Positions 23,691 to 27,140 are shown, counted from the stretch's first letter. The stretch is 64,000 nucleotides of DNA from Escherichia coli (GCF_024502345.1 NZ_JALDNN010000001.1); one strand, 5' to 3'. Notes: a model not told the origin generated them from the letters alone. Numbers and translations: made by a program.

Positions 23691-24974
23691 TTAGTCTTTA
23701 GCTGTTGCATTTTGCTTATGAAATAGTTCACGGAACACCGGATAAATATCATCCTGGTCGCGGATATGCTGCATCGCAAAGTTGTCGAAAGTAGATTGCA
23801 GATGCTCATATTCTCGCCACAGTGTCTGATGCGCGCGACGGGTAATTTCGATATAGCTGTAATAACGAACAACGGGTAATAATTTTTTCGCCAGAATTTC
23901 ATGGCAAAGCGGAGAGTCATCGGCCCAGTTATCGCCGTCCGATGCTTGTGCAGCGTAAATATTCCACTGTGCCGGGTTATAACGCTCTTTCACTACCTCA
24001 TCCATCAGTTTCAGGGCGCTGGAAACAATGGTGCCGCCAGTTTCCTGCGAGTAGAAAAACTCATGTTCATCGACTTCTTTCGCCTGGGTATGATGGCGGA
24101 TGTATACGACTTCCACGTTCTTATACGTTCTGCTGAGGAACAGATACAGCAGAATATAAAAACGCTTAGCCATATCTTTAGTGGATTGATCCATTGAACC
24201 GGAAACGTCCATCAGGCAAAACATCACTGCCTGGCTGGAGGGATCGGGCCGCTTCTCGTAGTTCTTGTAACGTAAATCGAAGGTGTCAATAAAAGGGACG
24301 CGTTCAATTTTGGCACGTAATTCTGCAATTTCTTTGCGCAGACGTTCCTCTTCCAGCAGCTGCGCAGGTTCACTGTTGCTGATGATGGCCAAATTCTCTT
24401 CCAGTGCATGAAGTTCCCGCCGCTTGCCTGCCGTCATGGCTGTGCGTCGCGCCAGTGAGTTCTGCAAAGAACGCACAACGCTGATATTGGCCGGAACGCC
24501 GTTAGCGGTATAACCCGCCCGATGCGTTTTATATTCGGTCAGCTGGCGTTGTTGGTTTTGTTTCAGATTCGGTAAGGCCAAATCTTCAAAGAGCAGATCA
24601 AGATACTCATCTTTCGAAATCTGAAAGACGAATTCATCCTGACCTTCACCATCCTGGCTGGCCTGGCCCTGACCACTGCCGGAACCTCCGCCGCCACCCT
24701 GGGGACGTTCAATTCGGTCGTTCTGGACGAAATGGTCATTGCCCGGATGTACGCGGTGGCGCAGGCCGCCACGCCCCTGATGAAACATCGGTTCGCTAAT
24801 ATCTTCCGTGGGAATGGATACGGATTCGCCGCTGTCGACGTCAGTCACCGAACGCTTATTAATGGCCTCGGAGATCGACTGTTTAATTTGCGCTTTATAA
24901 CGGCGTAAAAAACGCTGGCGATTCACCATGCTTTTGTTTTTGCCGTTCAGACGCCGGTCAATAAACCAGGTCAT
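23691..24974 (-). CDS. yeaH: DUF444 (YeaH) protein
   Basis: 427-aa ORF with Gly-rich low-complexity segment; 112 bp downstream of yeaG. Confidence 0.9.
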
Positions 24975-25086
24975 ATGCCCCCCGTACTACATTTGCCAAC
25001 TGTATGCTACGCCTGTGTTGCCATTTCTCTGGCCCACGGTTCGCTGTCGTTGTAGGCCCGGTAGCATGTGTACCGGGCCAGGGTTG

Positions 25087-27021
25087 TTAAGACGATTTAC
25101 GTACGCGCAAATACCATTCGCACAGTAAACGCACCTGTTTACGGGTGTAGCCTTTTTCCATCATACGGTCGACAAAGTCGTCGTGTTTCTTCTGCTCGTC
25201 GGTTGACGTTTTGGCGTTAAACGAGATAACCGGCAACAGCTCCTCGGTATTGGAGAACATTTTCTTCTCGATAACCGTGCGCAGTTTTTCATAGCTGGTC
25301 CAGTTCGGATTGCGTCCGCTGTTATTGGCTCTGGCGCGCAGTACGAAGTTAACAATCTCGTTGCGGAAATCTTTTGGATTACTGATCCCCGCCGGTTTCT
25401 CGATTTTCTCCAGCTCGGCGTTAAGAGACTCGCGGTCAAACAGCTGCCCGGTATCCGGATCGCGATACTCCTGATCCTGAATCCAGAAATCCGCGTAGGT
25501 AACATAACGGTCGAAAATGTTTTGCCCATATTCGGAATAGGATTCAAGGTAGGCCGTCTGGATCTCTTTGCCGATAAACTCGGCATATTTCGGGATCAGA
25601 TAACCTTTCAGGAACTCCAGATAGCGTTCTGCCTGCTCTTGTGGGAACTGCTCGCGCTCGATCTGCTGTTCCAGGACGTAGAACAGATGGACCGGGTTTG
25701 CTGCCACTTCTACATGATCGAAGTTGAACACGCGGGAGAGGATCTTAAACGCAAAACGCGTCGACAGACCGTTCATCCCTTCATCGACACCGGCGTAGTC
25801 ACGATATTCCTGATACGACTTGGCTTTGGGATCGGTGTCTTTCAGACTTTCGCCATCATAAACCCGCATCTTTGAATAAATGCTGGAGTTTTCTGGCTCT
25901 TTCAGGCGCGAAAGAATGGAAAAACGTGACAGTGTTTCGAGCGTGCCAGGGGCGCATGGGGCGTGAGTCAATTCACTGTGATTAAGCAATTTCTCGTAGA
26001 TTTTGATCTCTTCGGAAATGCGCAAGCAATACGGCACCTTCACGATGTAAACACGATCGAGGAAGGCTTCGTTGTTTTTGTTATTACGGAAAGTGACCCA
26101 TTCGGACTCGTTCGAGTGGGCGAGAATAATCCCGTTGAACGGCAGGGCGGAGATACCTTCCGTCCCGTTGTAGTTACCTTCCTGAGTGGCGGTTAACAAG
26201 GGATGCAGCACTTTAATCGGTGCTTTAAACATCTCAACGAATTCCATGATCCCCTGGTTGGCGCGGCACAGTGCGCCGGAATAGCCATAGGCGTCTGGGT
26301 CATTCTGCGCGTAGTGTTCGAGTTTACGAATATCGACTTTCCCTACCAGCGCGGAGATGTCCTGGTTGTTCTCATCACCGGGCTCTGTTTTGGCGATAGC
26401 AATTTGTTGCAGAATGGACGGCCAGACCTTCACTACCCGGAACTTAGTAATATCGCCACCAAATTCATGCAGACGTTTTGCCGCCCACGGCGACATGATG
26501 GTGCCGAGATAACGGCGAGGAATGCCATACTCTTTTTCCAGAATCTGAGCATCTTCCTGCGGATTGAAAAGACAGAACGGATGATCGTTGACCGGGCTAC
26601 GCTCACCGTTGGCGCTCAATACATAAATCGGTACGAGCTGCATTAATGATTTCAGTCGCTCAGCAAGCGATGATTTACCCCCACCCACAGGCCCCAGCAG
26701 ATACAGGATTTGTTTCTTCTCTTCCAGCCCCTGAGCCGCGTGTTTCAGATAAGAGACAATCTGTTCAATCGCGTCTTCCATGCCGTAAAACTCTTCAAAT
26801 GCCGGATAACGTGCAATGACCCGGTTAGAAAAGAGTCGAGAAAGTCTGGGTTCCTGGGCTGTATCGACCATGACAGGCTCACCGATAGCCATCAATAGCC
26901 GCTCAGCCGCGTTGGCATAAGCACTGCGATCTTGCCGACAAGTGGTAAGAAACTCCTGCAGTGTGAACTCTTCGTCCTTGGCAGCTTCATATCGCTGGCG
27001 ATAGTGATCGAATATATTCAT
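25087..27021 (-). CDS. yeaG: PrkA-family serine protein kinase
   Basis: 644-aa ORF; Walker A GPVGGGKSS. Confidence 0.92.
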   Translation of the reverse strand: MNIFDHYRQRYEAAKDEEFTLQEFLTTCRQDRSAYANAAERLLMAIGEPVMVDTAQEPRLSRLFSNRVIARYPAFEEFYGMEDAIEQIVSYLKHAAQGLEEKKQILYLLGPVGGGKSSLAERLKSLMQLVPIYVLSANGERSPVNDHPFCLFNPQEDAQILEKEYGIPRRYLGTIMSPWAAKRLHEFGGDITKFRVVKVWPSILQQIAIAKTEPGDENNQDISALVGKVDIRKLEHYAQNDPDAYGYSGALCRANQGIMEFVEMFKAPIKVLHPLLTATQEGNYNGTEGISALPFNGIILAHSNESEWVTFRNNKNNEAFLDRVYIVKVPYCLRISEEIKIYEKLLNHSELTHAPCAPGTLETLSRFSILSRLKEPENSSIYSKMRVYDGESLKDTDPKAKSYQEYRDYAGVDEGMNGLSTRFAFKILSRVFNFDHVEVAANPVHLFYVLEQQIEREQFPQEQAERYLEFLKGYLIPKYAEFIGKEIQTAYLESYSEYGQNIFDRYVTYADFWIQDQEYRDPDTGQLFDRESLNAELEKIEKPAGISNPKDFRNEIVNFVLRARANNSGRNPNWTSYEKLRTVIEKKMFSNTEELLPVISFNAKTSTDEQKKHDDFVDRMMEKGYTRKQVRLLCEWYLRVRKSS

Positions 27022-27124
27022 GGTATGCCGTCCTTTCGTTTTTTAGCACAGGTTAAGAGCCGTTCATATGAATAGTAGAGGCTCCCGGAAGAGGTAAACT
27101 GAACGACGTCTCTTGCTAAAACAC

Positions 27125-27140
27125 AGCAACTCTCATGCCA
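27125..27140 (-). promoter_or_regulatory. putative sigma54 (-24/-12) promoter of yeaG-yeaH
   Basis: Reverse strand TGGCATGAGAGTTGCT (GG-N10-GC), about 105 bp upstream of yeaG ATG. Confidence 0.4.

Follow-up and report, generated by a model that had tools for sequence, protein, structure and literature searches.

Predicted tandem sigma54 and sigmaS promoters of the Escherichia coli yeaG-yeaH operon and a MoxR-like AAA+ module in its putative serine kinase

What switches on the yeaG-yeaH gene pair of Escherichia coli, and what do its products, a PrkA-family “Ser kinase” and a DUF444 protein, do in the cell? These questions are addressed here for a 64,000-nucleotide stretch of E. coli DNA (NZ_JALDNN010000001.1, hereafter the window), in which the two genes and their nearest promoter motif occupy positions 23,691 to 27,140 and are read from the minus strand. 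A preliminary description of this DNA, made from the sequence alone, had singled out the pair as the likeliest site of undiscovered biology in the window. That expectation holds for the proteins, on whose biochemical activity published reports conflict, but not for the regulation: the operon, its sigma54/NtrC promoter, its control by sigmaS and by a small RNA (sRNA), and the phosphoproteome of the yeaG deletion mutant are all already known from published work. Very probably, yeaGH is a two-gene stress operon with two tandem promoters, and YeaG is a MoxR-like motor that works with YeaH and YcgB. Under this explanation, a distal sigmaS promoter would provide stationary-phase and general-stress expression, NtrC, an enhancer-binding protein, would open a proximal sigma54 promoter on exhaustion of nitrogen, and the sRNA SdsR, by targeting the shared 5′ untranslated region (5′UTR), would bring translation down late in starvation. 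YeaG would act primarily as a MoxR-like AAA+ ATPase motor, partnered with YeaH as an adaptor of the von Willebrand factor A (vWA) type with a metal ion-dependent adhesion site (MIDAS) and with the unlinked SpoVR-family protein YcgB. The three proteins would form a single protein-remodelling or signalling machine that slows metabolism in starvation, and the kinase and protease activities ascribed to YeaG would be secondary or unproven.

Both genes lie where the preliminary description had placed them. The yeaG coding sequence (25087..27021, minus strand) specifies a 644-aa protein of the PrkA family, with an N-terminal AAA+ ATPase module followed by an all-helical C-terminal domain. Its product contains the Walker A motif LLGPVGGGKSSLAERL (GPVGGGKSS) and matches the Pfam domains PF08298 (AAA_PrkA; E=1.3e-187, 623.5 bits) and PF06798 (PrkA C-terminal domain; E=8.7e-71, 239 bits), both above the gathering cut-off of 25 bits, which places it in the family. 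After a gap of exactly 112 bp (24975..25086) comes yeaH (23691..24974, minus strand; 427 aa), a DUF444 gene (PF04285, E=4.2e-191) whose product combines a disordered Gly-rich N-terminal region with a C-terminal vWA domain that carries a MIDAS-type motif.

The sigma54 promoter motif TGGCATGAGAGTTGCT (27125..27140, minus strand), with the -24 element TGGCAT and the -12 element TTGCT, occurs only once in the window. With the GG at 27139-27138 and the GC at 27127-27126, it does have the exact GG-N10-GC spacing described earlier for the reverse strand upstream of yeaG. The motif conforms to the sigma54 consensus (TGGCAC-N5-TTGCW), fitting 11 of the 11 specified positions of TGGCAY-N5-TTGCW. Taken alone, it is statistically unremarkable: the strict pattern TGGCAYNNNNNTTGCW matches once in the window against 0.30 matches expected and is found at least once in 26 of 100 shuffles, and the loose consensus, with one mismatch allowed, gives 4 matches against 3.5 expected. 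It is accepted as more than chance because of its position and its conservation across orthologous loci. Across 80 such loci, retrieved with YeaG as the query and comprising about 1 Mb in total, there are 24 occurrences of the strict pattern, all of them sense oriented and located upstream of yeaG at 78-226 nt from its ATG, and none elsewhere. A perfect core is found at the same place in 24 of the about 31 Enterobacterales loci. The motif of the window ends 103 nt before the yeaG ATG and is thus upstream, gene-oriented, and conserved, as befits a promoter. When 16 Enterobacterales yeaG upstream regions are aligned, no variation is seen in the columns of TGGCA and GTTGCT, in contrast to the 5-nt spacer between them, which varies (GAGAG, AAGGG, ACGGG, ACAGG, and AATGG) and the flanks are rich in indels; judged from this alignment, the -24/-12 pattern is a classic phylogenetic footprint. 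From the geometry of the motif, transcription can be predicted to start at 27114 (minus strand), 12 nt past the GC of the -12 element, which would give a 5′UTR of 93 nt.

Binding and expression data for this promoter have been published. The identical 17-mer, ATGGCATGAGAGTTGCT, is the chromatin immunoprecipitation-sequencing (ChIP-seq) peak OS18 of sigma54 at yeaG (FAT 6), listed 93 nt upstream of the gene (PMC4591121), a figure with which the predicted start at 27114 agrees; EcoCyc had earlier listed the promoter as “predicted,” and binding of sigma54 was then confirmed by the ChIP-seq (PMC4591121). The same 17-mer is present 93 nt from the ATG in strain K-12, where yeaGH (b1783-b1784) has the same genes, gene order, spacer, and neighbors (the divergent mipA upstream and cdgI/yeaI downstream), with no difference of substance from the window. 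In Salmonella, the same sequence is a sigma54 site in ChIP with microarray detection (ChIP-chip; ratio 4.1), and yeaGH goes up 2.5-fold with the constitutive activator DctD250 in the rpoS-defective strain LT2 (PMC3844500). NtrC has a ChIP-seq peak at yeaGH, with a score of 12.1 versus 59.6 at nac, and the listing in the same report, which cites expression arrays, has yeaGH as NtrC dependent (PMC4066584). In nitrogen-starved cells, NtrC and RNA polymerase both occupy the yeaG promoter region, and yeaG mRNA increases 36-fold within 20 min of nitrogen run-out (PMC4664914). Given the OS18 peak, the Salmonella site, the NtrC peak, and the mRNA increase, the sigma54/nitrogen control of yeaG-yeaH that had been offered as a candidate is better described as established. 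Most of the experiments proposed at the time have likewise been published, namely sigma54 and NtrC ChIP-seq and phosphoproteomics of a yeaG deletion mutant (PMC8055822).

The same preliminary description had regarded the motif as consistent with nitrogen or stationary-phase control. Nitrogen control does belong to this motif, but the stationary-phase response is due to another promoter, of the sigmaS type, immediately upstream of it, as indicated by two published reports (PMC6299236 and PMC4330354) and by the conservation of the sequence CTACGCTTAA. According to a review, yeaGH is driven by two adjacent promoters, one dependent on E-sigma54 and the other on E-sigma38 (PMC6299236), and in Salmonella yeaG gives 5730 reads in the wild type versus 26 in the rpoS deletion mutant (PMC4330354). 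The candidate extended -10 element of the sigmaS type, CTACGCTTAA (27187..27196, minus strand; hexamer TACGCT at 27190..27195), is located upstream of the sigma54 boxes, at a distance of about 55 bp, inside an island at about 27186..27200 that is conserved in the 16-region alignment. The extended -10 consensus of sigmaS promoters is KCTAYRCTTAA, accompanied by a weak -35 element; CTACGCTTAA agrees with this consensus, and its -35 element is degenerate (AGGCAA). The pattern CTACGCTT(A/T)A is conserved in Enterobacteriaceae, Erwinia, Dickeya, and Brenneria and begins 47-81 nt upstream of the start of the sigma54 motif (56-61 nt in Enterobacteriaceae except the locus L001, and 79-81 nt in Erwinia, Dickeya, and Brenneria). 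We infer that CTACGCTTAA is the -10 element of a second, sigmaS-dependent promoter, with an expected start near 27183; this assignment accords with Salmonella, where the rpoS dependence of yeaG is 220-fold. A scan with the sigma70 consensus gave no more than chance matches and missed the candidate sigmaS -10 element, and a text search of the literature for CTACGCTTAA returned unrelated papers only. To the published occupancy by sigma54, NtrC, and RNA polymerase, the 36-fold induction, the rpoS dependence, and the repression by SdsR, the present analysis would add a predicted placement of the exact sigmaS -10 element, of the transcription starts, and of NtrC.

A search for NtrC/enhancer sites had been proposed for 27150..27350, and nothing above background was found there: in the entire 435-bp intergenic region, which includes that interval, the best matches to the NtrC consensus TGCACCANNNTGGTGCA (27205..27221 and 27269..27285) reach 8 of 14 positions, which falls short of the 9 or more that most random pieces of 435 nt from the window attain. 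As a canonical NtrC site was not found, the enhancer either departs from the consensus or is located within a conserved block. The control region has four conserved islands: the 5′UTR, the sigma54 boxes, the CTACGCTTAA region, and, upstream of both promoters, the block GGATGAGTTGTTGATATGCCATTGAAATTA (27233..27262, minus strand). This block consists of invariant and near-invariant columns, including 11 that are invariant across Enterobacterales and an identity island at 27255-27241; it is positioned at about -119..-148 from the predicted sigma54 start and at about -50..-79 from the putative sigmaS start. It fits none of the simple patterns scanned (the NtrC consensus and loose IHF, CRP, Lrp, Nac, and ArgR patterns); the sole result of the scan in the intergenic region was an IHF core with one mismatch at 27246..27256, within the block. 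The GGATGAGTTGTTGATATGCCATTGAAATTA block may be a candidate NtrC enhancer or an activator site of the sigmaS promoter.

The yeaG promoter can be compared with those of the classical nitrogen regulon. Similarly to glnAp2, glnK, nac, and astC, it is intergenic, sense oriented, and has the -24 GG and the -12 GC at the exact spacing; similarly to classical NtrC promoters, it shows published occupancy by NtrC and sigma54 and is induced at nitrogen run-out. Unlike them, it has no recognizable TGCACC-N5-GGTGCA enhancer site within 435 bp and appears to form a tandem with a sigmaS promoter, in which it takes the downstream place; at nac the ChIP signals are higher than at yeaG. The window contains a second NtrC/sigma54 target, CTGGCACGAACCCTGCA (53626..53641, plus strand), which is the published sigma54 promoter of astC (OS17 of Bonocora et al.); it lies about 26 kb from yeaG, and the genes downstream of it are annotated as astC and astA.

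Among the 80 orthologous loci, sigma54 boxes are confined to Enterobacterales and are absent from all loci of Vibrionales, Alteromonadales, Aeromonadales, and Shewanella. The Enterobacterales that do not have them are Yersinia (L023 and L028), Edwardsiella, and two other loci (L012 and L014). At the aligned position, both Yersinia loci as well as L012 and L014 contain TTGAYC-N17-CATAAC, a sequence here taken as sigma70-like, which suggests that promoters have turned over within Enterobacterales. In two insect-symbiont Pantoea (L029:5712-6012 and L030:5712-6012), the boxes have decayed to TTGGCATAAGGGTTTC and TTGGCCTAAGGAGTTTG, with TTGC changed to TTTC and GGCAT to GGCCT. The decay or replacement of the boxes in some loci argues for selection on them in those where they are retained. 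As they are limited to Enterobacterales, the nitrogen control of yeaGH seems to be a lineage-specific addition to an older module: sigma54 control appears to operate in most members of the order, to have been lost or replaced in Yersinia, and to have decayed in the insect symbionts.

Several observations weigh against a functional sigma54 promoter. The “93” of PMC4591121 is the distance from a motif-predicted start, not from a mapped one; the yeaG promoter fusion in Salmonella was not lower in the rpoN deletion mutant, because of the presence of another promoter (PMC3844500); and no canonical NtrC site has been found in the 435-bp region. Accordingly, it might be argued that the sigma54 site is silent or marginal, that the increase of yeaGH expression in nitrogen starvation is driven by the sigmaS promoter via ppGpp/RpoS, and that the NtrC ChIP signal is weak or indirect. 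The modest ChIP scores of sigma54 and NtrC would fit this proposal, as would the very strong rpoS dependence in Salmonella (PMC4330354) and the finding that, under the conditions examined, the majority of sigma54 sites in E. coli drive no transcription (PMC4591121). Even so, its chances must be rated as very slim: the -24/-12 boxes are invariant in 24 Enterobacterales while the spacer and the flanks drift, and the decay or replacement of the boxes in the Pantoea, Yersinia, L012, and L014 loci implies selection elsewhere. Besides, DctD250 activates yeaGH in an rpoS-defective background (PMC3844500), the 36-fold induction is rapid and accompanied by binding of NtrC and RNA polymerase (PMC4664914), and yeaGH is among the genes listed as NtrC dependent by expression analysis (PMC4066584). 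Another proposal is that the closed sigma54 complex at 27125..27140 also acts as a roadblock, or occludes sigmaS read-through, when NtrC is inactive. The tandem geometry, with the sigma54 site at about +45 to +60 downstream of the putative sigmaS start, would permit such an effect, the Salmonella yeaG, glmY, glmZ, and rpoH fusions were equal or higher in the rpoN deletion mutant (PMC3844500), and repression by sigma54 where it overlaps other promoters is among the findings cited in PMC4591121. However, Bonocora et al. saw, genome-wide, no sign that bound sigma54 acts as a roadblock for the genes it overlaps (PMC4591121), and the Salmonella result was ascribed by its authors simply to the second promoter (PMC3844500), leaving occlusion as an improbable addition to the tandem arrangement of an active sigma54 promoter and an upstream sigmaS promoter.

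The 5′UTR of the predicted sigma54 transcript (27022..27113, minus strand) comprises the conserved sequence CTTCCGGGAG (27081-27090), the conserved AACCTGTGCTAA block, which includes positions -31..-22 (27043..27052), and an AGGA ribosome-binding site (27031..27034). In a published study that set the 5′UTR boundary at -93, positions -31..-22 were the pairing site of the sRNA SdsR, which lowers translation of yeaG late in starvation (PMC10954441). The SdsR pairing region accordingly falls in the conserved 5′UTR island. A riboswitch or another RNA structure was considered for both the 5′UTR and the yeaG-yeaH spacer and rejected, as no Rfam family matched either of them and neither was significantly more stable than its shuffled versions (z=0.01 for the 5′UTR and z=-0.63 for the whole 112-bp spacer, although the latter contains a strong local stem).

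With respect to protein function, the “Ser kinase” label is weak and no more than a family name; a kinase of the Hanks type gains no support from the fold or from residue conservation. YeaG is 82-100% identical from Escherichia to Pseudoalteromonas in the retrieved loci; its AlphaFold2 model and the conservation of its residues were analyzed using 56 diverse homologues with 28-89% identity. The model is confident (pLDDT 91.3, pTM 0.84) and consists of an alpha/beta AAA+ module (residues 1 to about 355) and an all-helical part (residues 360-644). In a Foldseek search with YeaG, the top 50 matches were all AAA+ proteins, and structure comparison put the AAA+ module nearest to the MoxR ATPases CbbQ and NorQ. 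It belongs to this structural class and has intact Walker A and B motifs, sensor 1, and the Arg finger. The residues invariant in the 56 homologues are G110, K116, N304, and R323 in the AAA+ module and, in the C-terminal domain, only R422, E541, and R553. The Walker A mutation K116A abolishes YeaG function in vivo. Lys426, the “catalytic lysine” of the kinase-dead mutant, is a Lys in 30 of the 56 homologues, and no Lys, Asp, or Ser residue of the C-terminal domain (for Lys and Asp, past position 380) is conserved in at least 90% of them. The model contains no bilobal fold with a beta-sheet N-lobe, and the C-terminal domain has neither the invariant catalytic Lys nor the catalytic/Mg-binding Asp of Hanks-type kinases. 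The protease domain of Lon is an alpha/beta fold with a Ser-Lys dyad; a C-terminal domain of this type was not found in YeaG, where the corresponding part is all-helical. The all-helical fold of the C-terminal domain and the poor conservation of its Lys, Asp, and Ser residues make it less likely that the conserved activity of this family is that of a Hanks-type kinase or of a Lon-type protease.

The structure of a 692-aa PrkA homologue has been solved (PDB entries 9xip, 9xiq, and 9xir, with 30 chains among the three) and was named “Serine protein kinase” by its depositors. The 9xip entry matches YeaG with E=7.5e-51; a literature search found no paper describing it. Some of the distant PrkA homologues have their AAA+ domains interrupted by intein splicing and LAGLIDADG domains (P0236 and P0249). 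In P0123, only a weak LAGLIDADG match is seen, and in P0122 and P0124 the AAA+ domain is split by unannotated inserts of ∼300 aa. These inserts use at least three break points (profile positions about 96, 186-193, 245, and 281), none of them in the C-terminal “kinase” domain, a distribution that fits a conserved functional core at the AAA+ site.

Recent papers, up to 2023, describe YeaH as a protein without similarity to known proteins (PMC6299236 and PMC10954441). In its structural model, residues 240-420 form a vWA domain (pLDDT above 80), and the top Foldseek matches are all vWA domains, with E-values from 1e-6 to 1e-4: C2a, CMG2, the A1/A3 domains of von Willebrand factor, integrin I domains, TFIIH p44, and the MIDAS domain of Rea1/MDN1. 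The residues D256-x-S258-x-S260, T312/T315, and D346/D348 are invariant in 32 orthologues and conform to the DxSxS...T...D pattern of the MIDAS; the orthologues were taken from the retrieved loci, since the homologue search gave only relatives with at least 86% identity. In the loci L032-L080, which belong to Vibrionales, Alteromonadales, Aeromonadales, and Shewanella, yeaH is followed after 10-50 bp by a gene for a SpoVR/SpoVR_C protein of 500-520 aa. None of the retrieved Enterobacterales loci has a SpoVR gene right after yeaH, and in the window this place is taken by a terminator and then cdgI. The E. coli SpoVR homologue, ycgB, is unlinked and belongs to a separate operon (Price et al.). 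Judging from the loci compared, the split into yeaGH and a separate ycgB is specific for this order. The yeaG, yeaH, and ycgB genes are cofit (r>0.7) in six bacteria (Price et al.), and the yeaG and yeaH deletion mutants have similar phenotypes (PMC10954441).

This gene arrangement is similar to that of CbbQ-CbbO, NorQ-NorD, RavA-ViaA, and BchI-BchD, in which an AAA+ gene adjoins a gene for a vWA protein with an invariant MIDAS. The yeaG and yeaH genes are, moreover, co-transcribed and cofit. In contrast to those pairs, YeaG and YeaH have a third conserved partner, SpoVR/YcgB. In YeaG, Walker A (110-117) and Walker B (about 258-263) are also some 140 residues apart, and there is the 280-residue helical C-terminal domain; MoxR proteins are not known to have either the long Walker A-B insert or the helical C-terminal domain. 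The closest parallel in composition is prkA-yhbH-spoVR of Bacillus, which represents the same three families (PF08298/PF06798, PF04285, and PF04293) and in which Walker A is likewise essential. The E. coli system differs in having ycgB unlinked, in serving starvation quiescence and not sporulation, and in being controlled by sigma54/sigmaS and not by sporulation sigma factors.

Since a MoxR-like AAA+ motor is encoded beside a vWA/MIDAS protein, a remodelling machine is favored over a kinase cascade. It is conceivable, although this stronger version is put forward only tentatively, that YeaG is not a protein kinase at all and that YeaG, YeaH, and YcgB constitute a MoxR-like machine that remodels or gates client proteins for starvation quiescence, with phosphorylation and proteolysis being side activities or artefacts. 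A number of findings weigh against a remodelling machine. The N-terminal half of the YeaH model is of low confidence, and no YeaG-YeaH fusions were found among the long PrkA homologues, the extra length of which turned out to be due to inteins. Mutants of YeaG outside the AAA+ module, K426A and the Y382stop truncation, fail to complement; recombinant YeaG was reported to autophosphorylate and to phosphorylate casein; and YeaG phosphorylates AceA in vitro in the presence of malate, with an altered phosphoproteome in the yeaG deletion mutant (PMC8055822). All of this would be expected if YeaG were a genuine Hanks-type Ser/Thr kinase, whose C-terminal domain phosphorylates AceA and other substrates and for which YeaH and YcgB are regulators or substrates; the Pfam name of PF06798 and the name given to 9xip by its depositors point the same way. 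Nevertheless, such a kinase is unlikely, even if it retains some chance of being right, given the confident all-helical model of residues 360-644, which lacks the beta-rich N-lobe of kinases, and the poor conservation of Lys426 and of every other Lys or Asp in the C-terminal domain. Besides, neither autophosphorylation nor kinase activity was seen with B. subtilis PrkA, and B. anthracis PrkA had negligible kinase and negligible protease activity.

A further finding that does not sit easily with a MoxR-like machine is the ATP-dependent degradation of alpha-casein by B. subtilis PrkA, on the basis of which this protein was proposed to be a Lon-like ATP-dependent protease. YeaG could then lower metabolism by degrading specific proteins. 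The B. subtilis activity was tested with phenylmethylsulfonyl fluoride (PMSF), there are weak sequence matches to Lon around Walker A, and the structural matches of the AAA+ module include archaeal LonB and the Lon-like protease MtaLonC. However, the similarity to Lon is confined to that module, the C-terminal domain is all-helical, unlike the protease fold of Lon, and has no Ser or Lys residue conserved in at least 90% of the homologues, the digestion of casein needed 16-24 h, and the B. anthracis protein had next to no protease activity; a protease function is therefore given little chance. The poor conservation of the kinase and protease residues agrees with the conflicting biochemistry, in which kinase activity is reported for the E. 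coli protein, protease but no kinase activity for that of B. subtilis, and neither for that of B. anthracis. The preferred assignment remains that of a MoxR-like motor. The YeaG/YeaH/YcgB set is extraordinarily conserved and affects survival of starvation and recovery from it. Conserved chemistry in the AAA+ site, a vWA/MIDAS partner, and a non-conserved “kinase” lysine point to an ATPase-adaptor-client model over a kinase-substrate one, and the results on fold and conservation set against the “Ser kinase” label a concrete alternative that can be put to the test.

The window represents the E. coli chromosome, with DNA 95-99% identical to that of most complete E. coli genomes; the region 23400-27500 was found in 5425 of the 5426 such genomes, and yeaG is annotated as “protein kinase YeaG” in 5425 of the 5426. 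In the window itself, yeaH (YeaH/YhbH family) and yeaG are annotated together with mipA, which is divergent, and, downstream, with cdgI, a gene for a diguanylate cyclase. An open reading frame of 75 aa (27018..27245, minus strand), which overlaps the promoters and the 5′UTR, was rejected as a gene because the 16-region alignment contains frame-breaking indels across it whose lengths are not multiples of three. Directly 3′ of the yeaH stop codon, an intrinsic-terminator-like hairpin with an 11-bp stem and a T-run (23658..23686, minus strand) marks the end of the operon. The yeaG-yeaH spacer, which differs widely in length between taxa (from 28 to about 230 bp), contains in the window a GC-rich hairpin, GGCCCGGUA...UACCGGGCC (25055..25079, minus strand), located right after the yeaG stop codon. 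This hairpin has no T-run and is followed by CUAC, resembling repetitive extragenic palindromic (REP) elements; it could modulate the relative stability of the yeaG and yeaH parts of the mRNA.

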